A stretch of 38,695 nucleotides of DNA from Reclinomonas americana ATCC 50394 (Eukaryota). The translations under genes and the position numbers were made by a program. The notes beneath the pieces were generated by a model, which worked only from the letters and a program-made list of their open reading frames with translations, was not told the origin of the DNA and did no database searches. Location: the NCBI GenBank assembly GCA_048213135.1, contig PS015545.1, positions 41,465 to 80,159 on the forward strand, given 5' to 3'. Shown in pieces: positions 1 through 36,800 of the stretch (positions are counted from its first letter, which is position 1; each line of letters opens with the position of its first letter).

Positions 1-3000
1 CCCTGCTGGCCCGAAGGGAACCGACGGCAAGGTCTGACGATTTTTATGGTGGCTTTTGTTGGTGTGGTTGCTCACTCGCGTGTCTGCTCTTGCCTAGCCT
101 GGTCCCGCCGGTCCCAAGGGAACTGACGGCAAGGTCTGATCTGTGTTTTCTCATTACAAGTGCTGTTGCGTGTTGCGCTGGCCAACTTGTTGTCGCCGTT
201 TCACACAGCCTGGTCGTGATGGCAAGGACGGCAAGGACGGCAAGGTGAGACGTTTACAGTCTGCTATGCGATCGATCGTGCACTTTCTTTGAGAGGCGCA
301 CTCACGGTTTTACATCCATGCAGCCTGGCCCTGCGGGTCCCAAGGGAGTTGACGGCAAGGTCTGATTCGAGTTCACTGTATTTCAATTACATGTAGCGTT
401 TGCCAACCTGCTATTGCCCTGTTACGTAGCCTGGTCCCAAGGGAACTGACGGCAAGGACGGCAAGGTTCGGCAGTCTGTGTGTGCTATCGAACTTGCACT
501 TACTTTGAGGAGCTGACTCACGCTTTCACATCCATGCAGCCTGGCCCTGCTGGTCCCAAGGGAACTGACGGCAAGGTATGCCGTCTCACAACTGTTTGCA
601 TACCCGGTTCTGCAGTGTTTACATTTGGTCTTCCTCGCCTGCGNNNNNNNNNNNNNNNNNNNNNNNNNNNNNNNNNNNNNNNNNNNNNNNNNNNNNNNNN
701 NNNNNNNNNNNNNNNNNNNNNNNNNNNNNNNNNNNNNNNNNNNNNNNNNNNNNNNNNNNNNNNNNNNNNNNNNNNNNNNNNNNNNNNNNNNNNNNNNNNN
801 NNNNNNNNNNNNNNNNNNNNNNNNNNNNNNNNNNNNNNNNNNNNNNNNNNNNNNNNNNNNNNNNNNNNNNNNNNNNNNNNNNNNNNNNNNNNNNNNNNNN
901 NNNNNNNNNNNNNNNNNNNNNNNNNNNNNNNNNNNNNNNNNNNNNNNNNNNNNNNNNNNNNNNNNNNNNNNNNNNNNNNNNNNNNNNNNNNNNNNNNNNN
1001 NNNNNNNNNNNNNNNNNNNNNNNNNNNNNNNNNNNNNNNNNNNNNNNNNNNNNNNNNNNNNNNNNNNNNNNNNNNNNNNNNNNNNNNNNNNNNNNNNNNN
1101 NNNNNNNNNNNNNNNNNNNNNNNNNNNNNNNNNNNNNNNNNNNNNNNNNNNNNNNNNNNNNNNNNNNNNNNNNNNNNNNNNNNNNNNNNNNNNNNNAACA
1201 CGCAACAGCACTTGTAATGCGAAGCTAAACACAGATCAGACCTTGCCGTCAGCACCCTTGGGACCAGCGGGACCAGGCTATGCGAGAGCAAAACATGCAA
1301 GTGAGCAAACACACCAAAATAGGTCACTGCACAAGTCGTCAGACCTTGCCGTCAGTTCCCTTCGGGCCAGCAGGGCCAGGCTANNNNNNNNNNNNNNNNN
1401 NNNNNNNNNNNNNNNNNNNNNNNNNNNNNNNNNNNNNNNNNNNNNNNNNNNNNNNNNNNNNNNNNNNNNNNNNNNNNNNNNNNNNNNNNNNNNNNNNNNN
1501 NNNNNNNNNNNNNNNNNNNNNNNNNNNNNNNNNNNNNNNNNNNNNNNNNNNNNNNNNNNNNNNNNNNNNNNNNNNNNNNNNNNNNNNNNNNNNNNNNNNN
1601 NNNNNNNNNNNNNNNNNNNNNNNNNNNNNNNNNNNNNNNNNNNNNNNNNNNNNNNNNNNNNNNNNNNNNNNNNNNNNNNNNNNNNNNNNNNNNNNNNNNN
1701 NNNNNNNNNNNNNNNNNNNNNNNNNNNNNNNNNNNNNNNNNNNNNNNNNNNNNNNNNNNNNNNNNNNNNNNNNNNNNNNNNNNNNNNNNNNNNNNNNNNN
1801 NNNNNNNNNNNNNNNNNNNNNNNNNNNNNNNNNNNNNNNNNNNNNNNNNNNNNNNNNNNNNNNNNNNNNNNNNNNNNNNNNNNNNNNNNNNNNNNNNNNN
1901 NNNNNNNNNNNNNNNNNNNNNNNNNNNNNNNNNNNNNNNNNNNNNNNNNNNNNNNNNNNNNNNNNNNNNNNNNNNNNNNNNNNNNNNNNNNNNNNNNNNN
2001 NNNNNNNNNNNNNNNNNNNNNNNNNNNNNNNNACATCTTGCAAACGTTGTCCATGCATGCTGTTCAGTTCTGGCCGCTGACGCTCGTATCTGTCTCATTG
2101 CAGCCTGGTCCTGCTGGTCCCAAGGGAACTGACGGCAAGGTTAGGCAGTCTGCAAATTTTTTAATGCAAGGTCGCTCATTGAGAAGCTAACGCACGCTTT
2201 CACATCCAAACAGCCTGGTGCTGCTGGCCCTGCTGGTCCGAAGGGACCTGCCGGTCCTGCTGGCCCCAAGGGAACTGACGGCAAGGTCTGATCTTTGTCC
2301 ATCCAAAATGTCGTTCCGTGTTGCGTTTTGCCGACTCGCTATCGTGCAGCCTGGCCCCAAGGGCACTGACGGCAAGGACGGCAAGGTTCGGCAGTCTGCG
2401 TATGGCTATGAACGCGCACTTTCCTAGAGAAGCTGACTCACGGTATCACATCCATGCAGCCTGGTCCTGCTGGCCCCAAGGGAACCGACGGCAAGGTCTG
2501 ATGCTTAACACAATCGTTTGCGTAATTGGCTCTGCTGCTTACATTTGGTCTTCTTCGTCGACGTAGCCTGGCCCTGCTGGCCCGAAGGGAACCGACGGCA
2601 AGGTTTGATCAGTATTTCGCTTCTCGGTACAAGCGTTGTTCAAACAGTGTGTTGCGTTTTACCGACTCGTTGTCCATCTGTCACGCAGCCCGGTCGTGAT
2701 GGCAAGGACGGCAAGGACGGCAAGGTTAGACAGCTCGCTAGAGCTCGCAAGTGCACTCCAATACTCATATTATTTTGATCCATGGTGCAGCCTGGCCCTG
2801 CTGGCCCCAAGGGAACTGACGGCAAGGTTTGATCAGTGTTCTGGCTTCTCGTGACAATTATCGTTACTCGTTGCGTTTTGCCGACTCGTTGTCGTCCCAC
2901 CACGCAGCCTGGCCCCAAGGGAACTGACGGCAAGGACGGCAAGGTTCGGCATTCAGTGAATGCTTTCGATATGAATACAATCTTTGAGAAGCTGACGTAT

Positions 3001-6000
3001 GGTTTCGTTTGCATGCAGCCTGGCGCTCCTGGCCCTGCTGGCCCCAAGGGACCTGCTGGCCCCGCTGGCCCGAAGGGAACTGACGGCAAGGTTCGATCTG
3101 TGTTTCGCTTCTCGTTGTAAGTGTTGTTCAACAGCGTGTTGTGTTTTACCGACACTTTGTCGTCGTTCTGTCACGTAGCCTGGTCGTGATGGCAAGGACG
3201 GCAAGGACGGCAAGGTTAGACAGCTCGTCAGAGCTTGCATGCGCACTGCATTGCTCACATTAGCTTGATTCTGTTGTGTAGGCTGGCCCTGCTGGCCCCA
3301 AGGGAGCTGACGGCAAGGTTCGATCTGTGTTTCACTTTGCGTCACAAGGCCATGGGGCTCTGCTTTTCGCTCACTTGTTGTTGTTCCTCCACACAGCCGG
3401 GCCCCAAGGGTAGTGATGGCAAGGACGGCAAGGTCTGTCATTCAGCGAATGCTTTCGATGGGAATACAATCTTTGAGAGGCTGACACGTGGTTTCGTTTG
3501 CTTACAGCCTGGCGCTCCTGGCCCTGCTGGCCCGAAGGGACCTGCTGGCCCCGCTGGCCCGAAGGGAACTGATGGCAAGGTTCGATCTGTGTTTCGCTTC
3601 TCGCGTGTTGTGTTTTACCGACACTTTGTCGTCGTTCTGTCACGCAGCCTGGTCATGATGGCAAGGACGGCAAGGTAAGACTACTTATCAAAGCCTACAA
3701 CTGCACTCCAATACTTACACGAAGTTGGTTCTGTGGTGCAGGCTGGCCCTGCTGGCCCCAAGGGAGCCGACGGCAAGGTCTGATCTGTGTATTTTTTCAA
3801 GAGTCGCTTTGTGTTGTGTTTACCGACTTGCTGTCATTCTGTCGCACAGCCTGGACATGATGGCAAGGACGGCAAGGTAAGACAGCTTGTGAAAGCCTAC
3901 AGCTGCACTCCAATACTCACATGAAGTTGATTCTGTGGTGCAGGCTGGCCCTGCTGGCCCCAAGGGAGCCGACGGCAAGGAAGGCAAGGTTGGTAGTCTT
4001 ACGATTGTGTTCGACGTGTTCGTTTTTGAAGCTGACACTTGGTTCAATTTTTATAGACTGGTCCTGCTGGTCCCAAGGGAGCCGACGGCAAGGTGTGGCC
4101 TGCGTTCAGATTTCACAGCAGGTGTTCTCGTACGTGAGTTTGACATCTAGTTTCCGTTGTGCGAAATAGCCTGGCCATGATGGCAAGGACGGCAAGGTCA
4201 GGCAGCTCGCCAGAGCTTGTTGCTGTACTCCAGTACTCACGTGAGCTTGATTTGTGGTACAGGCTGGTCCTGCTGGCCCCAAGGGCGCTGATGGCAAGGA
4301 CGGCAAGGTTAGACAGCTCGCCAGAGCTTGCAGGCGCACTATTAGTACTCACATGGGCTTGATTTGTGGTACAGGCTGGTCCTGCTGGCCCAAGGGCGCT
4401 GATGGCAAGGACGGCAAGGTTGCCAGAGCTTGCAGGCGCACTATTAGTACTCACGTGAGCTTGATCTGTGGTACAGGCTGGTCCTGCTGGCCCCAAGGGA
4501 GCTGATGGCAAGGAGGGCAAGGTCTGAAGCTTATCAGTGGCTCGGTAGTGTGATGTTCTCTGAATTCACTCTCTCCTATTTTCTACTGTGTAGACTGGTC
4601 CTGCTGGCCCCAAGGGAGCCGACGGAAAGGTCAGACTACGCCTCAGCTTTCAAGAGGTGTCGTGTTAGTGTTCACCAACGGTTGTCTCTCTACCTCGCAG
4701 CCTGGCCCCAAGGGATCTCACGGCAAGGATGGTAAGGACGGCAAGGACGGCAAGGACGGCAAGGTTTGGCAGCTTGTGAAGGCTCTGGATCCGTGTTTCA
4801 CTCGGAGGCTGATACGAGGTTTTTACCCATGCAGCCTGGTCCTGCCGGTCCCGCTGGCCCCAAGGGAGCTGACGGTAAAGACGGCAAGGATGGGCAGGTG
4901 AGAGATACTGGAGTATGACTGTGCCTGATTATTTTCTGCGATGCCGTATCGGTGCTCACCGTCTCCGATTTCGACATCTAGCCTGGACAAAAGGGAGAGA
5001 AGGGCGACAAGGGAGCTGACGGACTGGTTTGCCGATCGCTGACTCGCTATCGTGTGTTTATATCCATTCTCGTTCTCATCGTGTGCAACAGACGGGACCT
5101 TCTGGACCCTCCGGACCTGCTGGTCCTTCTGGCCCTGCTGGCGAGAAGGGCGAGAAGGGCGATGTGAGTTCACAAACCGCTATGTATGATGCTTGGTTTC
5201 TTCAACCAGCAGTCTCATTCTTCGCGGTTCACAGCTTGGTCCTGCTGGCCCATCCGGCCCGGCTGGCCCTGCTGGCGAGAAGGGAGAGAAGGGCGATGTG
5301 AGTCCTTGTTGGCAAGCTGGTGCTCGAGGCCATGAGTCTCATTCTTTGTATTATGTACAGCTTGGTCCGGCTGGCCCATCTGGCCCATCTGGCCCTGCTG
5401 GCGACAAGGGCGAGAAGGGAGACAAGGGCGATGTGCGTTTGCTGACCAATCTAATGTCGTGCACATCCCGACGTTTTGATCCTCATATGCGCATGCTTTC
5501 ACAGAACGGCGCTCCTGGCGAGAAGGGCGATGTGAGTTCAACGTGGTATTGGGTGACTGTGACATCACCAATCTCATTCTCTGTATTTTGTACAGCTTGG
5601 TCCGGCTGGTCCGTCTGGCCCTGCTGGCGAGAAGGGCGAGAAGGGAGACAAGGGCGATGTGAGTTTGCTGAACAATCTAATGTGGTACACATCCCAACGT
5701 TTTGATCCTCATATGCGCATGCTTTCACAGAACGGCGCTCCTGGCGAGAAGGGCGATGTGAGTTCAACGTGGTACTGGGTGACTGTGACATCACCAATCT
5801 CATTCTCTGTATTATGTACAGCTCGGTCCGGCTGGTCCGTCTGGCCCTGCTGGCGAGAAGGGCGAGAAGGGAGACAAGGGCGATGTGAGTCTGCTCATCG
5901 TGTACGTGCCGTGCACATTCAGACGTTCTCATCTTGACATGCGCGTGGTTTAACCACACAGAACGGTGCTCCTGGCGAGAAGGGCGATGTGAGTTCAACG

Positions 6001-9000
6001 TGGTATTGGGTGACTGTGACATCACCAATCTCATTCTTTGTATTATGTACAGCTTGGTCCGGCTGGTCCGTCTGGTCCTGCTGGCGAGAAGGGAGACAAG
6101 GGAGACAAGGGCGATGTGAGTTGCTGATCAGCCAAACTGTTGTGCACCTCCCAACCTTTGATCCTGACATGAGCGTGCTTTCGTTAGAATGGCGCCCCTG
6201 GCGAGAAGGGAGAGGTGAGCTCGCAAACTCCTGTGCGTTGTGCTAGGTTGCTACAGCTTGCTCATCATTTGCCGTTTGTAGCTTGGTCCGGCTGGCCCAT
6301 CTGGCCCTGCTGGCGAGAAGGGAGAGAAGGGAGATGTGAGTCCTCCTGTGCAGCAGCGTGCTTAGAATGACTACAAAACCATCCATCTCATTCTTCTTCT
6401 GCAAACAGCTTGGCCCGGCTGGCCCATCTGGCCCTGCTGGCGAGAAGGGCGAGAAGGGAGACAAGGGCGACGTGAGTTTGCTGAGCAATCTAATGTTGTG
6501 CATGTGCAGCATTCAGACGTTTTGATCCTGACATGCGCGTGATTGCGTAGAATGGCGCTCCTGGCGAGAAGGGAGAGAAGGGAGATGTAAGTCATCATGA
6601 TGTGAGGGGGCGACTGCAGAACTATCAGTCTTATTCTTCTGTTAACAGCTCGGCCCGGCTGGTCCATCGGGCCCTGCGGGCGAGAAGGGCGAGAAGGGAG
6701 ATGTGCGTTTCATTTTTTACGCTGTGCTCAGCAGCAGTGGCGACAGTTGTTTTCTCACATTCTTCCGTTCACAGCTTGGTCCGGCTGGCCCGTCTGGCCC
6801 ATCTGGCCCTGCTGGCGAGAAGGGCGAGAAGGGAGACAAGGGCGATGTGAGTTCGCTGAACAGTCAAATGTCATGCACGCCCGAACGTTTTGATCCTGAC
6901 ATGCGCGCGTGTTTGCACAGAATGGAACTCCTGGCGAGAAGGGAGAGAAGGGCGATGTGCGTTCCCATTCACAACCTGTTGCTAGGGTGACCAATCTCAC
7001 TCTTCTATGATTTACAGCTTGGTCCTGCCGGCCCGTCTGGCCCTGCGGGCGAGAAGGGCGAGAAGGGAGATGTGCGTTGTTGTTCACACATTCAGGTGAA
7101 CTACAACATCGTTCTCATGTATATTTGATTGCAGCTTGGCCCCTCTGGTCCCGCCGGCCCTGCTGGCGAAAAGGGCGAGAAGGGAGATGTGCGTTACTAA
7201 ACTGCAGTGTGGGACTCTGAATAGACGGCAACATCTGTTCTCATGCGTGTGCGTTTGCAGCTTGGTCCTGCTGGCCCGGCTGGCGAGAAGGGCGAGAAGG
7301 GCGACGTGCGTGGTGCTTTCGTATTGTGCTGCGCAGCGACGATTGTTCTAATGTTTATTCGATATGCAGCTTGGTCCTGCTGGTCCAGGTGGCCCAGCTG
7401 GCGAAAAGGGCGAGAAGGGTGACAAGGGCGATAAGGGCGATGTGCGTTTTCCCTCACATGATTGGTTACGATGATAATTTTGTCTCATGTTAGTGTTTTA
7501 TCGCAGCTTGGTCCTGCCGGCCCTGCTGGCGAGAAAGGAGAGAAGGGAGATGTGCGTCACTTTGTGCAGTGCATTGCTTCGTCGTGATAGTGTATTTGTT
7601 CTCATCGACTTTCTGCATGCAGCTTGGTCCATCTGGCCCTGCTGGCGAGAAGGGAGAAAAGGGAGATGTGCGTTGATCTTGCGGCGGGCTTCTGCACGAT
7701 GACTGCAACAACGGTTCTCACGTTGCTTCTTTATAGCTTGGTCCCGCTGGCCCTGCTGGTCCTATCGGCGAGAAGGGCGAGAAGGGAGATGTGCGTTATT
7801 CACGAACGTGCGGTTGTTTGTTGCCTCGTTGGTAATAGTTCTCACGTGCATTCTCTTTGCAGCTTGGCCCCGCTGGTCCTGGTGGCCCTGCTGGTCCTTC
7901 TGGCGAAAAGGGCGAGAAGGGTGACAAGGGAGACGTGCGTTTATCTTCGTGCATCACAGCGATGATGATAGCGATTGTTCTCATCTTGTGTGCTTGTCCA
8001 CAGCTTGGTCCTGCTGGCCCTGCTGGCGAGAAGGGAGAGAAGGGAGACGTGCGTCACTCTGCAGCGCACTAGTTTACATTGATCTTGGCAATTGTTCTAA
8101 CGTGTATTCTGTGTGCAGCTTGGCCCCGCTGGCCCTGGTGGTCCAGCTGGCGAAAAGGGCGAGAAGGGTGACAAGGGCGACAAGGGCGATGTGAGTTTAT
8201 GTTATGTCCTTACCTTGAGTGACAGTGGTGTCACCAACATTGTCTTGCTGTTTGATTACAGAACGGCGCTCCTGGCGAGAAGGGCGAGAAGGGAGATGTG
8301 CGTTTGTTCATGAACATGTGGTTCTTTTTTGTAGCTTTGCTGGCAACATTTCTTACTTGCATGAGATCGCAGCTTGGCCCCGCTGGTCCTGGCGGCCCGG
8401 CTGGTGAAAAGGGCGAGAAGGGCGACAAGGGTGACAAGGGAGATGTACGTTATTCTTCGCGTCACAGCGAGGATGATACCAGTTGTTCTCATTTTGTTTG
8501 CTTGTCCACAGCTTGGTCCGTCCGGTCCTGCTGGCGAGAAGGGAGAAAAGGGAGATGTGAGTCAATCTTTGCAGTGCAGTACTTTGCAGCGATAGTGGTA
8601 TTTGTTCTCACGTGTATTGTGTTTGCAGCTTGGTCCCGTTGGTCCTGGTGGCCCTGCTGGTGAAAAGGGCGAGAAGGGAGACAAGGGCGACAAGGGCGAT
8701 GTGAGTTTATGTTCTCGCTCTCAGCTTGAGAGTGGCAGTGGTGTCACAAACATTGTCTTCATGCTTGCGTACAGAACGGCGCTCCGGGCGAGAAGGGCGA
8801 GGTTTGTAGTGTTTTCTGGTTTGCTTGTGCTATCTCTTTGTGATCGCTGAAAACCGGGTCCCGCACAGATTGGTCCTGGCGGACCTGCTGGCCCAGCTGG
8901 TCCTTCCGGTCCCGCTGGCGAGAAGGGAGAGAAGGGAGACGTGCGTGCGACTCTTTGTAGTGCAGTACTTTACAGTGACTGTGTGGCGTTTGTTCTCATG

Positions 9001-11450
9001 TGTATTCCGTTTGCAGCTTGGTCCCGCTGGCCCTGGTGGCCCTGCTGGTGAAAAGGGCGAGAAGGGTGACAAGGGTGACAAGGGCGACAAGGGCGATGTG
9101 AGTTTATGTTCTGGTACTTCACTTGAGAGTGACAGCGGAGTCACCAACATTGTCTTCCTGTTTGCGTTCAGAACGGCGCTCCTGGCGAGAAGGGCGAGAA
9201 GGGAGATGTGCGTAGTTCATGAACTTGTGTTTGTTGGTGGCTTCGTTGGCAATAGGCTTCTCACGTGCATTGACTCTCAGCTTGGCCCCGCTGGTCCTGG
9301 TGGCCCTGCTGGCCCTGCTGGCGAGAAGGGAGAGGTGAGTTTATCCTTTGCAGTACCTCTCTTTACGAAAACGCATGCTGAAGCTGCCTCGTCCACAGCT
9401 TGGTCCGGCTGGACCTGCTGGACCCATTGGCCCCGCTGGTACTCCTGGAGAGAAAGGCGAGAAGGGCGACAAGGGTGACAAGGGCGATGTAAGTGCTGCC
9501 AACAAATGCAGTTTTAACTGAACGGGGTATCGTGATTCTGACGGATGCATGCGCGAGCGCAGAATGGTACGCCGGGCGAGAAGGGCACTCCAGGCGACAA
9601 GGGCGACAAGGGAGATGTGCGTCGCCGTGTATAGTCGTCGTTGTTTCGATGTTGGGTAGATGCTGAACCACGCACTATTTAATCGCAGATTGGCCCGGGC
9701 GGCCCTGCCGGAGAGAAGGGCGAGAAGGGCGAGAAGGGTGACAAGGGAGATGTGAGTGTGCTTGACCCGGTACCGTTGCCGAATTCGTCTCTGTAACCTT
9801 AATGCTTTTGCTGTCACAGCTTGGTCCGGCTGGCCCTAACGGCCCCGCTGGCGACAAGGGCGAGAAGGGAGAGAAGGGCGACAAGGGAGATGTACGTCGT
9901 CCAAAACTGCGGATGACTGAATGGAGTATTGACTTGCTGTTGTTTTTCACAGAATGGCGCCCCTGGTGAGAAGGGCGAGAAGGGCGACAAGGGAGAAAAG
10001 GGCGACAGGGGAGACAAGGGAGACAACGGCATGCAGGTATGACGCTTGCACATGAAGTAGTTGTTTCCGTCGTGTAACATTTCTGGCGTCCCCATCGCAG
10101 CCGTTCGGCCTGCGTTGCATTACCGCGTCAATCTCGTTGAAGGAGCCGCGCAATGCGTCCACCATTGTCCAGTGCCCTGCTGGTACGCCGTGGTCTCACG
10201 CGCCATTAATTCGTTTCTCGTTCCTCGCCCTCATTGCGCTGCGATTCGGGTTGCAGGAACTGTGGTGACCGGTGGTGGTATCATCAATCACCTGCGCGAG
10301 TTTAGCGAGCGGTGCGTCGTACTGTTGTGTGTGTGTCCAAGTCTGCTGCATACTCATGTCAATCTACGTGCAGCTCTGTTCTGCGTGAGAGCAAGCCAGT
10401 GGAGAACGGCTGGCAGTGCCGAGTGTGCGTCTTCTCGTCTTTGCTGCCCTTTTTCAGCAGTGTCTCACTCCACCGCATGCTTCTGTAGTGGCCTGTCTGG
10501 CGGAAAGTGGTCATGCTTCGCGCGTTGCTGCAAACTGCCGAAGGACACTGTTGTGGTGACCGTCACTGGCGACAATGACGCGTACGGCAAGTCGACCGCG
10601 AGTTGCCCGGCTGACTATCAGGTCCGATCGCACCCTCCTCGTATCGTGCCATGCAAGGCGCAGTACTCATCCTCCTGTTCACGGTGAACGCAGGTTCTTG
10701 GTGGTGGTATTGCCATCGGCGGAGAGACTTGCCACGAGAAGGACCCTCTCGAGCGCTACGTCTACAGCGAGTCGCGACCGAACGACAACGCCACGAGCTG
10801 GCAGTGCCAGGCTGGCCTCCAGGGTGAGTTTTCTGCCACGCCTCTATACCTCTCAAAATATTGACGCTCGACTCTCTTCTTTGCCCCGTCGCAGGCTCGT
10901 CAATCGCTCCGTCGACGTGCTTTGCTCGCTGCGCCAAGTTCCCCACTTCGCGCAAGATTGAAATTGTAAGCCGTTGCTTGTCGCTGCGACACCCGTGAAT
11001 AATGACGCTCATCGTGCTTTGTGTGCCAGGTTACCATCTCGTCGCCGACAGCCGATGCGATTCGCGTCTCGTGCCCGTCCACTTCGACTTTGGTTGGCGG
11101 TGGCTCGCTGTACGATGCCGGAAGCGGCGGATCCTGCAACGGTACGTGTTTCTACACCGTTCAACAACGCCTTCTTTTCGTCTCGTACTTATCCCACCAC
11201 CCCTTCAGGAACCAATGTGTTTGAGGAGTCTTATCCCGACACCAATTCCTCGTGGCGCTGCGACATGTTGCGTCGACGTCCATCGCTCGTTCTTTGTTTG
11301 CGAGAGCACGCGATACTCACAAATGTGGCTTTCTTTCGCAGGGCGCTGGATTCTGGCCGTCCACTGGCGTGCTACGCTTCTTGCGTCCACCCGCCGGGCG
11401 CTCAACTGATCCCCGACGTTCTCTCACTGGTCAACGAGACGAGTGAGTGA
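1..11450 (+). CDS. Giant collagen-like protein, 5'-partial and multi-exon: about 395 visible Gly-X-Y triplets plus a triplicated Cys-containing C-terminal head
   Basis: Spliced GT-AG micro-exons give continuous Gly-X-Y. First block: <1-31, 98-133, 209-244, 324-359, 430-465, 540-575, [gaps], 2104-2139, 2214-2285, 2350-2385 ... 4835-4897, 4982-5026 (PGPAGPKGTDGK, PGRDGKDGKDGK types). Second block: 5092-5163, 5235-5297, 5361-5432, 5505-5531 ... 9820-9891, 9953-10036 (LGPAGPSGPAGEKGEKGD, NGAPGEKGD types). Non-collagenous exons 10101-10182, 10257-10311, 10374-10424, 10489-10621, 10694-10823, 10895-10965, 11030-11141, 11209-11266 and 11342-11450 join in frame to a TGA (...LVNETSE*). One exon (4375-4418) is 1 nt short. 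Confidence 0.93.
644..1196. other. Assembly gap (N run) inside the collagen repeat array
   Basis: Continuous Ns from 644 to 1196. Confidence 1.
1197..1383 (-). other. Inverted fragment with two collagen micro-exons, probably a mis-oriented contig
   Basis: On the minus strand, exons 1380-1345 (PGPAGPKGTDGK) and 1277-1242 (PGPAGPKGADGK) have tag|...|gtctga borders. The introns resemble those at 32-97 and 134-175. Gaps flank it on both sides. Confidence 0.85.
1384..2032. other. Assembly gap (N run) inside the collagen repeat array
   Basis: Continuous Ns from 1384 to 2032. Confidence 1.
2104..10036 (+). repeat. Tandem exon-intron cassette array (about 90-165 nt units) with 2-exon and 4-exon higher-order periodicity
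   Basis: Intron families recur. 'gtgagttcaacgtggta(t/c)tgggtgactgtgacatcaccaatctcattct' starts at 5532, 5758 and 5989. 'gtgagtttatgtt...gagtg(a/g)cag...tcac(c/a)aacattgtctt' follows 8190, 8700 and 9097. Confidence 0.9.
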
Positions 11451-20387: not shown

Positions 20388-23300
20388 TCACAACAGGAGT
20401 TTGTCGTCGCCGAGTAGCACCTCTGCCGCGGAGTGTGGATGCAGAGAGCAGAGATACGGCAGGCCAACAGGTCCGAGTCCAATAAGAAACTCCTGCACGC
20501 GATGTACGGTAAGTACATTGAGTGGTATTGCAGCAGTGTCCCACGCACACGCGTGACGCGGGAAGAGTGTGTGAGCAGATGTGACGAGTGACGCAACTCG
20601 ATAGGCACTCAGATAATCGTGCTTGGTCCACATCAGCGCCCGCAAGTGCGCACTCCACGCCGAGTGCAGCAGTGGCAAGCGATTGAGGAGAGTGAGACGC
20701 ACAGAGCCACACAGCGGATTGACACAGGCGCAAGCCAGCACCGCAAAGGCGGCGGAGAAGCGCGGCTGCATCCGTCCAGCCACCATCCGTGAGACCGGGA
20801 TTTGTGGAGGGAGGAATATTCTTTTTGCACGACAACGATTGATGTCAATCACGCAACGACATCGACGACTGTGGCCGTCACGTGCTGCACCATTCTCTGC
20901 AGCTGTGTGACTTGTCGGCCCCCCGCAGCTGCCACCGGTCCCACTGCACTGCCGCGCTCCACGCCGGCCACCCCGTCGACCGCCGGAAGTCGGCTATCGA
21001 GGTCCTCCAGCGACGACAACAACTTGCCGCCAACGTCGGCAAAGCTGCAACAGAATACGCGCGAAATCAGTCAATAGTCAGAAGAAAAAACGACAACAAC
21101 AACAACAGGGCAACTCTGAGAGTGCTACACTGACAGCGTCAGCCACTGACACGGAGGGCGCGACTGAAGATGCCGACGCGGCCACCGGCGCCGTCTAAGC
21201 ACACCGATACAGAAATCAATAATAATATATCGGTCCAACACAAATGCTGCCACACCCGCACCATCAAGGCGGCCACATCCTGCAGTGCTGTGCGCACCAG
21301 GAGGCGTGTGGCCAGCCGAAACATCTTCTTCGCCAGAGCTGCGAATATATTGATGGGTTTTTTTCTTGGCGCGCAGCCCACCAATCATCCAACGGCTGCC
21401 TTTCGCCGCTAACACACTCACCTCGTCCGTCTGCTGCACGGCTGGCGACCATGCAGTACACTTCGTAGGCCACAGTGCGCACCGCGGAGCTCAAATCACT
21501 TCGCTGATGGCGGGAGAAGTTGCGGTGAGTGTACCAAAGTGAATACCACAGTGGAACGGGTGTGCGCGTTCTTCTCAACTGTGGACTCGTCGACAGCCCG
21601 GCAAAAGGCCACCAACATCAGCGCAAAATCATTCAGGACAGACGGCAGTGGCACAGCTTGCATTCTGCTCGCAAGCGCAGCGCAGCACGTCAGGGAAAAA
21701 CAGGACCCACTCCTAGCAAAAGCAAACAAACGCAACAAATGGCCACACAGTCGCAACGCTGCTTCCACCTGCTGATTGCAGTGCGGCTGTGAGCTGCGCA
21801 GTCGCCATGCCACCACCGTCCGCAACAAGCTGCATCGCAATCTCGCCGTCTCTGGCGATCCTCGCGGCCGCTGCACTTCCGGTGTGAGAGACGCCGCCAG
21901 CCAGGCAATGGCGCTCGATTGTCGCTGCGTCGCCGAGAACGACGAGCCAGCAGCCGCGCCAATCACCGTTGACATGTGCCGCGACGATGCCTCCGCACTG
22001 CACACCGAAGAGAGAGATAAGAATGTGCGGCACACGGAATGTGCGAGAGCCGCACCTGTCGAGGACTCGCAGCACCACTCTGGCCAGCGTGCGACCAACA
22101 TATGGGTCCGTCGCAAACGAGAGTTGTGCGAGGCAGGCCAGCAGACTTGGCAGGTGTTGGCGAGCGAGCGACCTGTCGGGGTAGGGGTGAGGCACTCCCG
22201 CAAGACAACTGCAGCGCACGGCTGGAATCAACGCCACTCACTCGTCGGCATTCGGCGACAGGAAAAAGTGATCGAGCAGCCACGGCAGGAGACTGGTCGA
22301 AGAGGCCGGGCGGTATATCAACGGTGCGCACTGCTTGATCACACAGGCCACAACGTGCCACACAAACTGCTTGTGCTCCGCCGAAGACACCAGCAGAGTC
22401 TGCAAGTTGAAAAAGTACTTTTCCATGGCCGACTGCACAGAGACGGCCTCGTGAGGGGGCATTCCAGCCACCGTCTCGCGATACAAGCAGCCCATGTTGC
22501 GAAAGGTGTCTGCGGGCGGTCGAGTCAGGCACTGCTGCGCACCAGGCCACACACCTCTTGGATGCTACAAAAACCTTGCACCAGACGCAATCGCTCTGCG
22601 GCAAACTCGGCCTCCGTGCGATATCGCGACACAAACACTTCTGCGCCTGCCGCCGTACGTCGCGCGGTGACGACTCGTGGAAGGAGCCGCCGGAAGCCAG
22701 CACAGTTGGCACTGACCAAGGCAGTCGTCAAGCGCAGCTGCAACGCCGTGCTTCCTTCGCAGTCCAGCATCGCCTGCAGCCACATATTGATGTAGCTGCT
22801 TTCGTATTCCTGCACGCAAAATATAAATGAATCAGTGCAGACGGAGGAGGGCACAGACACGTCGACGAGAGAGCCACCTGCGCCAGCGATGGGAAGGCTG
22901 CCAGCATGGCGCACGCGTATCGCACCGGAAGCGAGCGCTGACGTGCGGAGGTGTTGGCGCGAGTCAGCCAGCGGCTGGCGTTGCCGTATTGCGCCAGCAA
23001 ATCATCCACTTTCTGCACACCACAGTAAGATCACTGTTTCTCGTTTGAGGCGTGCCATTGTCACAACGCACTTTGCGGTGCAGTCGCACGAGGAAGCAGT
23101 CCAGCTCGGCCATGCAGGCGACCAGCGCCTCGAATTGTGCCGCATCGCCCTCGACACTCCTGCACAGGTACGCACAGAACTGAGTCCCACAACAAGCAAG
23201 AAAACAATGACAAGTACGCACGCAGCGCTGGCCATCAGCGACGAGAGGTGGGGCTGCACCTGCAACGCCAGCACATCACAAACATCTGTGGCGAGTGGAT

Positions 23301-26300
23301 CCACTGGTGCTCGTGGCGGAGGAGGTGGAGGCGGTGCGCCACCGCGGGTGGCGGCCAGCTGCGCCAGACGCTGCAGCACGGCCGGATCGTCGTCAAAATC
23401 GTCAAAATCGTCAAACTCGGCGACCGCAGTTGCGGGCGACGGCTGTTTCGGCAGGAGCGCGGACAGACAAAAGGCACCAGCACGACAGGGACCAGACGAT
23501 GAGCTGCGCGGGATTGCGTTACAGGAAAAAGAAGCAACAATGAGCAGCAAAGCGTCACATACCTTGGAGCTGCACTGCGTGCGGCCAGCGGCAGCACTCT
23601 GTTGAGGGCAACACGAACAATCTCCAGACACTACAGCACTGCTGTGAGAAGGCAGACAGATGACACGGCTAACCAGTAAGCGTGCGTGATGCACCTGCGA
23701 GCGGAACTCGGATGAGGCAGCATGCGATGGATGCAACAGCTGGAGTACTGTGCGCGAGAGATACACGTGTCGCACCACGGCCCAGGTCACCTGAAGCACG
23801 CATTGAGCATTGCAGGCCAACAATTGAAGCGCATGGTATATCGACGCAACTTTTTCACGCGCCAGTGCATCGACATCACGAGGCGCGCGCTGTTCGAGTC
23901 GTGCCAACACAGAGCGACACGACACGATGCACGCAAGTATCGACAGACACAACCGACGCTCATCGTCCTTGCGAAAGGCGTCGGCTGGCGACGGTGGTGG
24001 TGGCGGCGGCGGCGGTGTGGGCGCAGCACCACTGCCGCCGCTTTTGCCACCGAGAATCTGTCGCATCGATACCGTCGACGTGGACGACGACGTGGTGGGT
24101 CGACTTGGTTGCTGCGTTGCAGCACTGCCTCCGGGAGGAGCAGATGGAACGGAACAGTGCAGTGGTGCGAGGAGCTCGGCAGCCGACTGCACCACAGATT
24201 CAGACGACGCTCTCTTTCTACGCCAGCATGAAAAGCATCGTGTAACTTGTACTTTCTCGGGCTCCCCACGAAATATTGCCACCGCCAGCAAGCAACGAAT
24301 GGCGTCGACCACTGTGTCACGCAGTTGCGAATCGAGCTGACCAGGCACGTACAGAGCTGCACCACAGTGTGAGATGCGTGGAGGTAGGCGCGGACGACAC
24401 ACACGAAGAACATGCCTTCCCATCGCTTCACCATGGTGCGCCACTGGCTGTCGGCAGCCGCCGAGGCCACCGACAGCAGCAGCGCCAAGCATGCGCGCAA
24501 ATGACCTCCGTGTGCCTGCATGCTGCTGTCAGTGACAGAAGCAAGCGACAGCACCATCGCGACTCGTGCGCGGGAGACGTACTCTACGCTGTGCGCCAAA
24601 CGGTGCCGACGGCAGCAGCTGGAACAACTGGGAAATCAGTCGATTGCCGAGTGTCGTAGCACGGCGACGACTCTCTTCATCTCTGTGGCGCACGAGTCAG
24701 CTGGCTGAAAACAAATCTCTGGAGACACCAGCATCTTCTTGTCACTCACCCACTAGCCGCTTGCGCATTGACCAGGCGCACGTTTGCATGCACAAGCTTG
24801 AGAAGAATGCATTCGAGCGAGTCAACGGGCTCCCGACAGCACGGCACAGTTCCATCGTAGTGATCCTGCCAGCGAGTGCTTATTAATCAGAAAAGAAGGG
24901 AGCAGCGACGCGAGAAACAAAATACACGAAACCAGGAACGGAGGAAACTTGCGCCCGGCAACACTCAGCGATGCATCAGCGGACACCATCGTCAGATGTT
25001 GCTTCCACAGTGCAGGCACCAGCGACGGCGGACAAGGACCCCAGAACCCAACCAGATCCAGCACGCGTGCAAGGAGGGTTTTGAGGAAATCGGCACGCAG
25101 ACTTACACGACTGCGGTTACCGGGCGTAGAAAGAAATGAGCCTAGTGCTCTCTCACACACACACGCACGAGGGAGACCACATTGCAAGTCAACAACAACA
25201 CACCGCAGAATATCGACGGAACCGAGGCGGGAGCAGCCGTGGTTGGAGTCAAAGGACGACAACTGTGGCGTGCATCTGTCGCTGGGCAAGAGTGCGACGT
25301 CCGGCGACGCGAGCAGCATCTCCACCAGTGGCCAGTTGGCGGCATCCGTCGTCGTGTGGCCCTCGTTGTCACACTTTATCGACTCGAGGATCTCCGCAAA
25401 CGTGAACAGTGCACACCAGCAGAATTCAAGAACGTCTGCACACGCGACATTACTCTCAGAAGGAGAGAGCACAAATGACATCAACGAGGCCATTATACCT
25501 TCGCGGAACGCCACACGGAGAGTCGAGGGCTTGAAAAGCGGCGCATTGGCGGGTAGAAGCGGATCTGAGACGGCCACCGGCTGATCGATCACCACTCGCG
25601 GCAAGCCGGGGATGTGTCGGAGAGTGGCACACACGGCATTGAGGACGCTCCACAGCGAATGCAGGCGACTGCCGTCGGCCTCGACAAAGTGCTGCGAGTG
25701 CCAAGTGAGCGAAAAAGAAAGCATCTACATTCTCTCACCGCCGCCACTCACCGGCAGCGCGAACGCCATGTGCGCCACCAAGTATGCACATGGTGCTTGT
25801 GCGAGCAGCGTCAGTGACGACACTCCTTCCGGCACCTTCATCTGCGCCGGAGCTGTGCACGCATCGTCAAGGAGCGGACGGAGGGATGATGGCGCGCACA
25901 CACAATCGCAGGGGGGGAAAAGAAGGATATCTGGTGATGACCACCATCAGCTGGCGCACGAGCTGCCGCGCATACGTCGGCGCATCTATCCACAGCATGC
26001 GTCGCAGTACCGGATGTCCGTGCAGCAGACGCAACCACTCGAGGCCGTGACAGTGCACCACGACGGCCAGCTGGCGAGCGGCATGCGACGCCTGCTCCGC
26101 CAACTCGCCGACAGAGACCAGCAGTGCGCGCCAACCTCGCTCCAGCCACTGCAACAGACGACAGGCGCGATCCAAGGCCGTCACCTGACTGTCATCATCA
26201 CCACTGCCGGCACACATGTCGACCACACGACACAGCCACGCTGTCACTTGTCGACACGTCGACTCGACCGCGTGCACCGTGTCGCCATCGGGCGCGGCGT

Positions 26301-26882: not shown

Positions 26883-28611
26883 TCATTTCTCCTTTTTCTT
26901 GCCATCGGGCCACTGGCGGCGCGGTGCACGGCGCTTACGTGGCGGTTGCTGCTCCTCCTCCTCCTCTTCCTCCTCTTCTTCTTGATTCTCGACCTTTCCA
27001 TTCTCCTTTTCCTCGTCGTCAGCGTCGCGCTTGGCCTTGGTGACGTGCTGCAGTCGGTTTTCGATCCATGTGGCCTCCTCGTCGAGTCCGTGCGAGGCGT
27101 AGAATGCCAGCAGGCGGCGGTAGCGATCACCGAGGTCACATTGGAGCAGCGCGTGCAGCTTATGCAGGCAGACGGGGCACAGGAAAGCCGCCTGTGCGAA
27201 ATCCTCTTCCAAGTGTCCCGACCCGTTCATCAAGCTGCAGTCAGCGGGGGAGGTGGTGGTGGCGATGAGCGATCTCTACCACGGCATTGCTTGTGCATCA
27301 CACGACGCACCAGCAGAAATGAATGCAGTGGTCGAGCCCGAGCAGGTGCGCTGTCTCCCAACGAATCATGTTGGTCAAGGGACGACACAGGCAGCCTCCA
27401 CCACGCGACTCACCGAGTTCGTGTGCCAGCAGCTTGCAGGAGCGTGCCAGTAGCAGTGCCTTGCGAATGGACTCGGCCTCCTCTCGTCGAGCGCGGCTCG
27501 TTTTCTTCTTGTCGCAGATCTCCTGGTACTGCACGTCGCACGCAAAAGAAGTGAGAAAACGTGCACACTCTCCCTCCCAAGTGTCGCACAAGCCAACCTC
27601 CTCCGTGTACGACCGCTGGTGCCAGAACTCGCAGCTGAACTCGAGTGCCGGGTCGTACCGTGCAGTGCTGAACACCTGCAATGCATGTCAGTGTACGCGG
27701 CCTTCAATTTCCCCGTCATCTCTGCTCCCCCCCACGCAACAGCCACTCTACGCGCTCCGGCGGCCATGCCAGCCACAAACAGGTCGGTCTTGCACGAGAA
27801 GAGCTCCTCGGAGGTGAGCGCGACCAAGCACAGCGCATCGTCGGGCAGACACTCGCGCAGCGCCATCAACAGCGGATCGACATGAAACTGTCGCTGCTTG
27901 CCATGCCGCCGACACCGCAACACATGCGTCGTCCCATTCACCGCCATGCGCATGCTCACACTCTCCTCCCTCTCCTTCTCATCTTCGTCATCTTCCTCGT
28001 CGCGTTCCTCGACCAGAGAAGCCGGCGGCAGCAAGTGCACCGGCATGGTGTGATAAAACGCCTCCACAAACTCGCGCAACGCCGCAAACTCCATCAACGG
28101 ACACTCGCCAATCTGCAGCAGATACACGCGGCCTTCGGGGTACCTCTCCATCATCGACGCACCCTGCACACATGCGTAAGGGACAAGTCGCGAATGACGT
28201 GTGCGCGCGCGTGCGTGCGATGAAACCTCCGGGCGAAACGCCTGTCGCGTGGTGTACTTGACACGACGACCAGAGATCCACGGGCACTCGTCGACAAACT
28301 GCGCATACTTTTGACCCTCCTTTTCTCGCACCATGCATGAGCAACCATGAACACGCGCGAAAAAGTCGAACACACAGCACAACACACCTCGACATACTGC
28401 GCCAGCCAGTCGTCCTCACTGGTGGGCGCCGGCAGCGGAGCAAAGTGCGCGGCAGTCGGCTCATACCACCCACGCGGAGACGCGCCAATCGCGGCCACAC
28501 TTTCCGCGCGACTCGGTCTGCACAGTACAAAATAAGCAAGGGGTACGACAAAGAGTTAACAGTTGCAGGAGAAGAGCAGAACCGGCGGAACCCGCGCGCA
28601 AAGGGGATCAT
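26883..28611 (-). CDS. Archaemetzincin (peptidase M54, AMZ1/AMZ2-like zinc metalloprotease)
   Basis: Spliced motifs: DWLAQYVEEGQ, LREFVEAFY, DALCLVALT..ELF...FVAGMA, VFSTARY, RSCKLLAHEL|AHLLGLDHCIHFC|CLMNGSGHLEE...FLCPVCLHKL, and RYRRLLAFY. This is the HExxHxxGxxH site plus the M54 Cys4 motif. An intron at 27351-27413 splits the zinc motif. Confidence 0.92.
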
Positions 28612-33829: not shown

Positions 33830-36800
33830 ATGGACGGCCGCGATGCGAATGCCGAGGTTTGTTTGTTTGTCTCTTTTCTTCTCCACTGCATTCTCCTCTT
33901 CTTCTGTCTTGTCTCACCTCTCCTGTCACCCTTTGCAGTGCGGCTTGGCATGCGCGGCAGAGTACGACCAGGTGCCCTTTTTCGCCTCCCCAGTCTTCGA
34001 CCTGGCGATCAGCGTGTCGGCTCCATTGTTTGCGGCCGACGATGAGGAGAGCGTCCAAGTTGAGTCTGGTTGCCTGCGTTTGATGTGTGATGGTGCCGGT
34101 GAGCGCTCACTCCTGTGCATACAGACACGCCCTGGCCTCGACCTTGTGGCCGTCATGGACACCAGCGGATCGATGAGTGGCCAGCCGATCCAGCTGGTGA
34201 TCGACGTGTTGACGTTCATCATTGAGCGGCTGGAGCCCAAGGACCGACTGAGTGTGGTGACCTTTACGACCTCTGCCACGCTAGTGTACGACCTCACGCC
34301 TGTGGGCCACACGGAGAAGCTCGCCATGTTCCGCCATGTGGCAGCCATTCGCGCGGGTGGCGGCACCAACGTCGGTGCCGGCCTCCTCAAGGCCTTTGAT
34401 GTGCTGGAGAAACGCTCGCGAGTCAACGACGTGGGCTGCATCTTGCTGCTGACCGACGGCATGACGGCTGGTGAGCTGCGCACGGCTGACCAGTTCAGTG
34501 CGCGGATTGGCCAGCAGATGAAGCTGCTGTCGCAGCCAGTTACCATTCACACCATTGGCGTGTCGGAGTCGCACGACGCACCGCTGCTCATGGGCATTGC
34601 GGGTGCGGGTGCGGGCTCGTACAACTTTGTCGCCGACGCTGTTGGTGAGTGGCGTCGTGTTTTTTCCGCTGCTCTCTGTAACTGCTCACCACCACACTGA
34701 ATTCTCTCACAGCCATTCCCGAAGCGTTTGCCAACTGCATCGGCGGCATGGTCAGCGTTGTGGCCACGCGACTGGAGCTCACGATCGAGGTATGCTGTGC
34801 TATTCTTCTTGACACCTCTTATGCACGCCTCTCACTCCCTCTCTCCGATGCAGTGCGCTGCCGGTGTGACCATCACCTCCGTATCCACCGAACTGCGGCA
34901 GACTATCAGCGACGACCGCACGGTTGCCACTGTCAGTGTCGGCACGCTCTCAGCCGGCGAATCACGTGACCTCCCCGTCCGTGTGCAACTGCCTCGGTGC
35001 GAGGTGCCCACTGGTGAGCACAGTCGCTCTCCCATCGCCTTTTCTCCCTACCTCTCCCTCACACCCCCGCTTCCGTTGCAGACGCCTTTAATGTCGTTCG
35101 CGTGCATCTGCGTGGCGCGAACATGGTCGAGCGACGTGACGAAGTGCAAGTTCGCGTGTGCACCATCCGACGACCGGAGAACGTGCCAGCCATTCGCGCC
35201 ATCAACCTCGCCGTGGATCGCCAGCGCAACCGTGTCATTGCCAGCGAGGCGCTTCAAAAGGTGCCGTGCAGAGTGCCGTTCTTTTTTCCCTCTCCTGTTT
35301 GTGTTCATGGTGCTGACATTTCGAGTGCGCATGCGCTCCGCAGGCCGTATCGCTGTCGCAGTCGAATCGAGCTCGCATGGCGCGCGAGAGCCTCCGAAGC
35401 GCCATGGAGCGTATCCGTATCTCCGCCTCGGGTGACGAGACGTACTGCCGCGGCCTGCTGCAGGACCTTGCGCTGGCCGTGGACACTGTCAACGAGGCCG
35501 AGGAGCAGAACCAGAAATCGCTGTCGGCGGCCGGCGCTGGCCTGCTGATGGCGATTGCCATGTCACACCGATCGCAACGCGCCAGTGCGGCCAGTGGCGG
35601 TGCAGAGAAGCCCAAGTCGCGCTACGCCACCGCCTGCATGAAGGAGACACTCGAGGCGTACCAGGCCAGTCGTAAGGGCACCTCTTCTGCGTCCAGTGCG
35701 GCGGTGGAGGTCGAGGCCGAGGAGCTGCACCCGTGGACATGCGAACTGCACTTGGATCCGGCAGCCGTGGCCATGGATGCTGATGGTTTGTGTGGGTGAT
35801 TGTGTGTGTGTGTACGTGTGCTCTGTGGTCTCATCATGGTGCTTGCTGAATCACAGCTCCCACGGAAGTGGAACTGGCACTGCGGCAGCGATCGTTGTCA
35901 CCCGAGTGGTCGTGCTTCATCTCGCTGGCCAACTGGCAGGAGGACCTGATTGGCATTGGCCTTGCTGTCGAGCGACGGAAGAAGTTTGAGCGCCACCGCG
36001 GTCTTCTTCCCGACATGATTATCACCAACGACTACATCAGCGCCGCCGCCTTCAACCAGGGTGCTCGCACGCTGGTGGCTGGCGTTGCGGATCGTGAAGT
36101 CGACGAGGTTTGTTGCTGTCTCTATCTGTGTGCATTTTTCTTTTTTCCTTACCACTGCTTGCGTGCAGTCATTTGCCGTGTTGCCGGGATCGATTCCTGG
36201 AGACCGCATCAACGCCGGCCTGCTGCTGTACATTCACCCTGAACGTGAGTCCCTTTTGCTCTTCTCCCTCCTCCTTCTCCTTCTCCTTTTCCCTCAATAT
36301 CCATCCCTCTGCAGACTGGCGTGTGGCGCGCACGGTTGTGCCCAGCTGCATCTCGGTCATCGCCACCGGCCGAAACGACAAGTTCTCCCCCACCATGGTG
36401 TGTTTGTACAGTGCCTTTGCCCCTTTCCCCTCCTCGAGTGCTCACATTGATTCTCTGCGTGTGCGTGCAGGCGTTGGACGTGTGCTGCCATTTGCTGGCG
36501 CAGTCGATTGTGCGCTTCATCACCAAGAAGACGCACGTGTCGGATCGTGCCCTGCAACAGTTTGCCCACATTCACCGCGTGGGCCTCGCTCTTGCCGACG
36601 AGTATCCCAGCATTCGCAGCGGCGCAGAGCACCGGCTGCGGACGTTTATTGACAAGCCAGAGACCCGCGGGCGAGCCGGGACCCCTTCACTGGGTGATCT
36701 CGTGCAGTGCCTGCTGTTTACCGACGCAGTCTCGTGGAGTGGTGAGTGGTGGTGGTGGTGATGTGTGTGTTGATACGATGCAGTTTGTGCTGTGTCTCAC

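Follow-up and report, generated by a model that had tools for sequence, protein, structure and literature searches.

A candidate collagen-like gene with more than 70 small exons cut between X and Y of the Gly-X-Y triplet and a cysteine-rich C-terminal head

The classic case for the growth of collagens by amplification of small exons rests on one lineage, the animals, and the locus described here raises the question whether a eukaryote outside the animals could have built a long collagen-like rod in a comparable way. The locus lies in a 38,695-nt stretch of eukaryotic DNA (the window) from Reclinomonas americana ATCC 50394 (assembly GCA_048213135.1, contig PS015545.1, positions 41,465 to 80,159 of the forward strand) with a G+C content of about 55–60%. 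Its first 11,450 nt hold a run of very short exons that would encode a long series of Gly-X-Y triplets, followed by a C-terminal part rich in cysteine, which we call the head. With a probability of roughly 0.7, we take the locus to be a single genuine gene, kept up by selection, in a compact eukaryote rich in GC and in introns; the gene would specify a cassette-built Gly-X-Y rod with a Cys-rich head, and we include in this reading the role proposed for the product below.

Each Gly-X-Y run on the + strand of positions 1-10036 is a short block with AG before it and GT after it. A scan of the + strand of 1-10100 with the pattern AG + Y codon + (GGN NNN NNN)n + GGN NNN + GT returned 70 entries, 69 of which are clean cassettes of 27–90 nt, all multiples of 9; the remaining 9-nt entry, at 4410-4418, was rejected as an artefact that sits within a 44-nt exon. 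Three more exons raise the count of helix exons to 72, the number that a first-pass annotation of this DNA had listed: 1-31, truncated by the window start, 4375-4418, the one of 44 nt, and 9953-10036, with which the helix ends. The 71 complete exons fall into a few size classes (36 nt, 22 exons; 72 nt, 13; 45 nt, 9; 27 nt, 8; 63 nt, 8; 54 nt, 7), with single exons of 81, 90, 44 and 84 nt. The annotation had described every complete internal exon bar the 44-nt copy as a multiple of 9, which holds for the 69 clean cassettes but not for the last helix exon, whose 84 nt are divisible by 3 and not by 9 because the helix stops after a Y residue (GMQ).

The register of the cassettes is uniform. In all 69 clean cassettes the first codon specifies the Y residue (P, A, T, L, N or I) and the last two specify G-X (GK, GD, GE, GQ or GL), and all 69 are symmetric, with phase 0 at both ends, just as the annotation had claimed when it placed all introns in phase 0 after the X residue (GK/P, GD/L, GD/N). 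The most frequent of the 71 junctions are GD/L (24), GK/P (22) and GD/N (11). The first visible block (positions 1-575) encodes the peptides PGPAGPKGTDGK, PGRDGKDGKDGK, PGPAGPKGVDGK and PGPKGTDGKDGK and has GT..AG introns of 66–79 nt. It is followed by a basic, Lys-rich helix segment (segment A), in which exons end in GGC AAG before GT and start with CCT, GCT or ACT, and by an acidic segment (segment B), in which GA(T/C/G) at the exon end precedes GTGAGT or GTGCGT and the first codon specifies Leu, Asn or Ile (Table 1). All exons together amount to 3561 nt or 395.7 triplets, and those of 2104-10036 to 3350 nt or 372.2 triplets, close to the ~395 and ~372 estimated earlier. When 2104-10036 is spliced without the 44-nt exon, 1102 residues result, with Gly at 367 of 367 Gly positions; this long, uninterrupted (Gly-X-Y)n is the repeat of the collagen triple helix (PF01391). 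With nine C-terminal exons added, the window contains at least 81 exons, 72 of them collagen exons (74 counting those of a mis-oriented island described below), and 80 junctions.

Scan and shuffles exclude chance as the source of the cassettes. The 69 cassettes of at least 27 nt lie on the + strand of 1-10100, none occurs on the + strand of 10101-38695 (28.6 kb), and the whole - strand has two, both within the island at 1197-1383; the region 2033-10100, when its mononucleotides were shuffled 200 times, contained 0.03 cassettes on average and never more than 1. A gene model in a Gly-first register was rejected, as the later AG sites that it uses yield G-K-G breaks, and the listed exons are the sole set of boundaries that gives an uninterrupted helix.

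The properties of the introns were tallied for the 70 that do not span N gaps, two further junctions spanning the gaps at 644-1196 and 1384-2032. These 70 introns are 58–88 nt long (median, 71 nt), so that the range of about 55–80 nt in the earlier description was too narrow at the upper end. All 70 donors are GT and all 70 acceptors AG, with G at +5 in 69 donors (the exception is the intron after the 44-nt exon), and the donor sequence most often reads GTGAGT (17) or GTGCGT (16). A branch-like motif, CT[ACG]A[CT], is present in 47 of the 70, lying 16–24 nt from the 3' end in 45 of these 47, and the first AG past it is the annotated acceptor in 39 of them; an AG-free stretch of at least 15 bases precedes the acceptor in 64 of the 70. 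Intron lengths are spread over the three classes modulo 3 (24/23/23 before the 44-nt exon was moved to its correct place, one base away, which puts two introns into other classes), and 40 of the 70 have an in-frame stop when read in the frame of the exon. Only 8 combine a length divisible by 3 with freedom from stops, and so the introns cannot be coding spacers. In size and signals, the nine introns of the C-terminal sequence, which is not repetitive, match those of the helix. Judged by these signals, the helix introns have every appearance of genuine spliceosomal introns. Introns this short (~70 nt) would be removed constitutively through intron definition, and exons as small as 27 nt would be tolerated because of it.

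How the array grew can be read from its internal repeats. Tandem Repeats Finder (TRF) returned seven rows of multi-exon tandem arrays, with periods of 489, 202 and 111/102 nt in segment A and of 226, 256 and 397 nt in segment B. Many introns have a paralogue within the gene at 80–97% identity, and others stand at a background of ~66–70% by our scoring. Within a type, exon lengths step by full units of 9 nt, GDK for instance being present in one to four copies, and 41 distinct peptides occur among the 70 in-frame exons. These patterns show that the cassettes arose via tandem duplication of exon-plus-intron units; the rod was thereby built from a few founders by repeated duplication (unequal crossing-over), its exon lengths then being altered in 9-nt steps. 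Length has changed at two levels, by triplet slippage within exons and by unequal crossing-over between cassettes, because exons of one type differ by 9-nt units and multi-exon arrays are present. We read the uniform X/Y register as inherited from a founder cassette, rather than as 70 independent events or as the outcome of selection at each junction, since all cassettes descend from a few founder units. Because the cassettes are phase 0-0, multiples of 9 and cut between X and Y, each recombination of cassettes stays in frame and keeps the helix. Two suggestions of the annotation are borne out here: removal or duplication of any internal exon preserves frame and helix, as the 69 clean exons of phase 0-0 and 9-nt multiples attest, and rod length is tunable via recombination, which has altered the number of cassettes, as seen in the tandem multi-exon arrays and in paralogous introns up to 97% identical.

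The same duplications leave a trace of selection. We used 11 reciprocal-best intron pairs with an identity of at least 75%, which together are identical at 682 of 806 positions (84.6%). Among the 22 flanking exon pairs, the 11 of equal length were compared and the other 11, which differ by 9-nt units, were left out; the compared exons are identical at 442 of 477 positions (92.7%). Of the 35 exon differences 29 fall at third codon positions, and there are 24 synonymous codon changes versus 6 non-synonymous ones, a bias that argues for a collagen gene that is real-looking and selected as coding sequence.

One cassette, the 44-nt exon, is defective. It sits in a 102–111-nt tandem array with 87–94% matches (TRF), and the intron after it has lost 9 nt at its 5' end, which leaves the donor GTTGCC without the otherwise invariant +5 G. 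Skipping this exon keeps frame and helix, and such a skip is harmless because its neighbours are symmetric. A dead cassette and an assembly error are equally likely explanations of this copy. The assembly is also broken near the start of the window, where the N runs at 644-1196 and 1384-2032 are two gaps that enclose a 187-nt island. On the minus strand, the island holds two collagen cassettes separated by a 67-nt intron, with TAG before and GTCTGA after each, and this intron is 76% identical to the intron at 32-97. The island is most likely a mis-oriented contig that is part of the same collagen gene.

The composition of the helix suggests how the product might behave. Pro occupies X in 135 of the 367 triplets and Y in 32, and GPP triplets are absent; K-G-[ED] pairs number 103, and charged residues make up about one third. 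K-G-E and K-G-D pairs are known from collagen peptides and bacterial collagens to stabilise helices poor in hydroxyproline. Segment A (342 aa) has a net charge of +24 and segment B (760 aa) one of -40, a basic-to-acidic gradient along the cassette order. The collagen helix rises 0.286 nm per residue, at which a rod of at least 367–395 triplets would be about 315–340 nm long. The product would be a secreted, homotrimeric, collagen-like rod, poor in Y-proline and rich in K-G-E and K-G-D pairs, with a basic N-terminal and an acidic C-terminal segment; this polarity could drive a staggered or antiparallel association of rods, and the protein may form part of a cell coat or wall, a stalk or an adhesive fibre. 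Codon use in 2104-10036 is strongly skewed for a gene this rich in GC (GCT 93 versus GCC 12; CCT 92 versus CCC 35; AAG 166 versus AAA 3).

Past GMQ, the reading frame continues through nine exons to a TGA at 11448-11450, specifying 266 residues in 801 nt. This head consists of three tandem modules of ~85 residues each, with the pattern C-P-x4-[VL]-x-G-G-G ... E-S-x-P ... W-x-C ... C-[FY]-A-[RS]-C, and contains 16 Cys and 5 N-x-S/T sequons. Intron positions vary among the three modules. The head introns are 62–75 nt long with G at +5 in 8 of 9 donors; an atypical donor, GTTGCG at 11267, opens a probable 75-nt intron (11267-11341), in frame and stop-free, in the last module. If retained, this intron adds 25 residues, including one Cys, to the module. 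Because the head carries cysteines and glycosylation sequons, the secretory pathway is suggested, and the head is probably glycosylated.

Searches with the head were made exon by exon, at reduced sensitivity. With each head exon queried singly, Pfam gave no family at E up to 0.1–1, and COLFI, C4, C1q and lectin domains were not found among them. A PDB sequence search with three head exons gave nothing significant, the best values being E 0.73 (a peroxidase) and E 5.9 (Toxoplasma MIC1), and the ESM Atlas had no usable match for a head exon. An exhaustive HMMER search with a 44-aa head exon against 1.84 billion representatives gave one match (E 1.7e-5), to a protein of 648 aa whose repeats have one Cys each, and we judged this match probably spurious. 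As a side observation, the exon queried as 10694-10825 (+) shares C-x-E-K ... Y-x-E ... W-x-C-x-x-G with the micronemal adhesive repeat protein MIC1, at a non-significant E of 5.9. The module pattern may resemble that of the resistin-like modules in the C-terminal domain of PCSK9, a tentative lead.

Comparison with known collagen genes sets the locus apart in its register. Fibrillar exons (54, 45, 99 or 108 bp) open with an intact Gly codon and close with a Yaa codon (PMC2852846), in agreement with what the annotation had said of metazoan fibrillar exons. Fibrillar genes are thought to derive from a primordial 54-bp unit by duplication and unequal crossing-over (PMC2852846, PMC4450265); amplification of a 54-bp exon is the model that Yamada et al. 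put forward in 1980 (reviewed in PMC2852846). The present gene resembles fibrillar genes of the COL1A1 type in its long unbroken helix, its many short phase-0 exons with sizes in multiples of 9, its growth through exon-plus-intron duplication and unequal crossing-over, and its C-terminal non-collagen domain. It differs in that its exons run from Yaa to Xaa and not from Gly to Yaa, in modal sizes of 36 and 72 nt instead of 54, 45, 99 or 108, in introns of ~70 nt, in Pro mainly at X, in about one third charged residues and in that no COLFI was found; among the 71 complete exons no Gly codon comes first, 7 have 54 nt and 9 have 45 nt, and the single-exon Pfam scans gave no match to the COLFI propeptide in the head.

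Type IV genes, including those of ctenophores, are likewise multi-exon genes with a C-terminal globular domain of tandem modules (C4-C4), but they are characterised by split Gly codons and irregular exon sizes (PMC5395295), whereas here no junction among 71 splits a Gly codon and no head exon matches C4 (NC1), which also holds against a spongin-like assignment. Part 1 of 2 of the supplementary exon table on Mnemiopsis shows G at the start of nearly all collagenous exons, exceptions being isolated (PMC5395295). COL7A1 shares the very many, very small exons: it has 118 exons, 107 of them in frame and hence skippable in principle, sized 27–201 bp with a mean of 54, and its helix is encoded by exons 29-112 (PMC6831832). 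Its helix has 19 interruptions (PMC6831832), in contrast to none in the 367 triplets here, and its large NC-1 and NC-2 domains belong to known families. Defence collagens (C1q, collectins) have a short stalk versus a helix of more than 1100 residues here, and no C1q or lectin match was obtained with the head exons. Bacterial and viral collagen-like proteins such as Scl1 and Scl2 may be alike in a charge-pair-stabilised helix with a globular trimerisation domain at one end, but they are intronless, with shorter helices and an N-terminal head, unlike the 80 junctions here, 70 of them GT..AG helix introns with nine more introns in the C-terminal part. Schistosome micro-exon genes contain runs of very short, symmetric exons that are alternatively spliced; they are similar in their freely combinable exons and dissimilar in that those exons do not encode collagen.

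In a limited search of the open-access literature we found neither an X/Y collagen register nor a micro-exon collagen outside animals, which does not imply absence from print. A metagenome scan with a degenerate 18-nt motif of exon end plus donor gave at least 118 loci with one match each; among the matches listed, none of the 118 loci had a cassette or a Gly-X-Y run of at least 8 triplets, as expected of chance matches. The annotation had proposed an independently evolved exon-cassette collagen in another register. The difference in register stands, since the X/Y phase-0 register, as read here, differs from that of documented animal collagen genes (fibrillar, type IV); an origin separate from those families would fit the finding of no COLFI, C4 or C1q in the head exons, each scanned singly. 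That a non-animal eukaryote independently made a rod of fibrillar length (>1100 residues) from an X/Y founder and capped it with a three-module, Cys-rich head outside the described families is a tentative proposal, to which we give slightly less than even odds.

Several points weigh against the reading of a real, maintained collagen gene with the role proposed. The gene model was read from genomic sequence by itself, and the 5' end of the gene lies upstream of the window, so that any signal peptide or anchor is outside it. The number and order of exons are not secure because of the two gaps and the inverted island, and inclusion of the 44-nt exon leads to a stop 98 codons downstream. When single exons of at most 30 aa were scanned with the Pfam Collagen model PF01391, the two longest (30 and 28 aa) gave E 1.1e-5 and 2.7e-5 with 25.5 and 24.3 bits, both below the gathering score of 27.2 bits. 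At the level of exon queries, the head appears to be without a relative in the searched collections. COLFI, NC1, C1q and the Scl V domain lead us, by analogy, to propose that the C-terminal head would nucleate and register the trimer and/or bind a ligand, and secretion, homotrimer formation and extracellular use are features that we infer.

The same frameshift and stop from the 44-nt exon, the lack of relatives in the searches and a 5' end beyond the window would suit a decaying or never-expressed repeat, but a pseudogene would hardly keep 367 unbroken triplets, GT at 70 of 70 donors with +5 G at 69, and an 801-nt, non-repetitive C-terminal frame intact across nine introns; with exon differences concentrated at third positions (29 of 35; 24 synonymous versus 6) and introns diverged twice as much as exons, we regard this alternative as very improbable. 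Mis-assembly of a shorter array, which would inflate the cassette number or distort the structure, draws on the two N gaps, the inverted two-cassette island and the 1-nt and 9-nt deletions in a single copy of the 102–111-nt array. The copies differ, however: each position has its own sequence, because the peptides (41 distinct among 70 in-frame exons) and the best-paralogue intron identities (~66–97%) vary, and the order of cassettes runs from basic to acidic, and we consider such an inflation quite unlikely.

The annotation had also suggested that the cassettes could be alternative exons, regulated skipping of which would give rods of varied length and charge. All 69 clean internal exons are symmetric, so that every skip would be in frame and keep Gly-X-Y. 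In a working gene, and with a correct assembly, the 44-nt cassette with its non-consensus donor has to be left out, which would be one natural case of a tolerated skip. Exon symmetry is nevertheless wholly accounted for by the history of duplication, and short, uniform introns (58–88 nt) with strong signals form an intron-definition architecture. Retained introns have been tied to intron definition and contrasted with cassette exons (PMC2397502), and intron retention is believed to prevail in non-animal eukaryotes, exon skipping being an animal speciality (PMC6142364, PMC2397502). Unequal chains in one trimer are, moreover, harmful in the best-studied case, as natural in-frame skips in the COL7A1 helix are frequently dominant-negative (PMC6831832). 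Tuning of the rod by exon skipping is accordingly disfavoured, and we give it very slim odds. A diverged animal-type collagen (fibrillar, type IV/spongin-like or defence) with slid or replaced introns, which would not be independent, could explain the helix of fibrillar length (at least 367 triplets versus about 338, the figure of the annotation), the non-collagen domain at the C terminus, which fibrillar, type IV and C1q-type proteins also have, and neighbours well known in animals and their relatives (homeodomain, MMS22L_C, tryptophan 2,3-dioxygenase, VWA). This descent is in our view very improbable, given that no complete exon among the 71 opens with a whole or split Gly codon, that the head exons show no COLFI, C4, C1q or lectin domain and no relative bar the one probably spurious match among 1.84 billion representatives, that Pro is mainly at X without a GPP triplet, and that the best matches of the neighbouring genes are 36–44% identical and not from animals.

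If the collagen gene is as we read it, amplification is caught here at several ages, from intron pairs 97% identical down to unrecognisable ones, and the idea of a recombination-safe cassette becomes testable outside animals. Biophysical work would also gain a long collagen that is poor in proline, stabilised by charge and naturally polar from basic to acidic. Were independent assembly true, amplification of cassettes would be a way to long collagens that is general and reached by convergence, and the head would represent a new type of domain for collagen trimerisation or recognition. The significance is lessened in that tuning by splicing finds no support and that collagen-like proteins had been recognised outside animals before, triple-helical motifs having been described from viruses, bacteria, fungi and choanoflagellates (PMC2852846). 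A canonical type IV collagen has been reported from the filasterean Ministeria (PMC5560861).

Table 1. Features of the collagen-like gene and its surroundings in the 38,695-nt window
Feature	Position	Strand	Basis or remark
First visible block, exon cut by window start and five exons of 36 nt	1..575: 1-31 (cut by window start), 98-133, 209-244, 324-359, 430-465, 540-575	+	cassette scan
Gap region with 187-nt island 1197-1383	644..2032	.	N runs 644-1196 and 1384-2032
Island cassettes, two of 36 nt, in the usual collagen design	1242..1380: 1345-1380 (PGPAGPKGTDGK), 1242-1277 (PGPAGPKGADGK)	-	pattern scan; 67-nt intron between
Helix segment A, basic, Lys-rich, 24 clean exons and the 44-nt exon	2104..4897	+	cassette scan
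Segment A exons, first half	2104-2139, 2214-2285, 2350-2385, 2460-2495, 2567-2602, 2689-2724, 2791-2826, 2908-2943, 3019-3090, 3179-3214, 3282-3317, 3397-3432	+	cassette scan
Segment A exons, second half	3508-3579, 3648-3674, 3742-3777, 3850-3876, 3944-3988, 4057-4092, 4170-4196, 4263-4307, (4375-4418), 4477-4521, 4594-4629, 4701-4763, 4835-4897	+	cassette scan
44-nt cassette with 1-nt deletion (one C lost) in GGCCCCAAG	4375..4418	+	lies in lesion region 4308-4476
Helix segment B, acidic, GEKGEKGDKGD-type, 41 exons	4982..10036	+	cassette scan
Segment B exons (1)	4982-5026, 5092-5163, 5235-5297, 5361-5432, 5505-5531, 5596-5658, 5731-5757, 5822-5884, 5962-5988, 6053-6115, 6188-6214, 6282-6335, 6409-6471, 6551-6586	+	
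Segment B exons (2)	6649-6702, 6775-6846, 6921-6956, 7018-7071, 7135-7188, 7261-7305, 7370-7441, 7507-7551, 7623-7667, 7737-7790, 7863-7934, 8004-8048, 8119-8190, 8262-8297	+	
Segment B exons (3)	8373-8444, 8512-8556, 8629-8700, 8775-8801, 8869-8940, 9017-9097, 9172-9207, 9281-9334, 9399-9488, 9563-9616, 9689-9751, 9820-9891, 9953-10036	+	
Head exons	10101-10182, 10257-10311, 10374-10424, 10489-10621, 10694-10823, 10895-10965, 11030-11141, 11209-11266, 11342-11450	+	
UBD	12.0-12.4 kb	+	Pfam match of open reading frame (ORF)
FGGY_C (FGGY kinase)	12.4-13.2 kb	-	Pfam match of ORF
Homeodomain	18.6-19.4 kb	-	Pfam match of ORF
MMS22L_C	22.2-22.6 kb	-	Pfam match of ORF
PHD (PHD finger)	30.1-30.7 kb	+	Pfam match of ORF
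Tryptophan 2,3-dioxygenase (TDO)	32.3-33.4 kb	+	Pfam match of ORF
VWA	33.8-34.7 kb	+	Pfam match of ORF

Downstream of the collagen-like gene, the window is compact, with roughly one gene per 3 kb (Table 1). The best database matches are 36% identical for VWA (plant and metagenome proteins) and 44% identical for TDO (the jakobid Andalucia godoyi, EukProt); identities this low suggest a lineage of which the searched collections contain no annotated relatives. The ESM Atlas had no usable match for the TDO exon, and neither the Rfam nor the tRNA scan of the window gave a match. The ORFs at 26886-27687 (-) gave no match in Pfam; they contain H-x-x-G-L-D-H-C followed by further Cys, which is metal-binding-like and may resemble a motif of archaemetzincins. 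Several long ORFs are without a family, for example 23005-24528 (-) and 36746-37996 (+). Dinucleotide repeats give rise to THTHTH, SLSLSL and ERERER runs in the ORF translations, for example at 38.2-38.6 kb.

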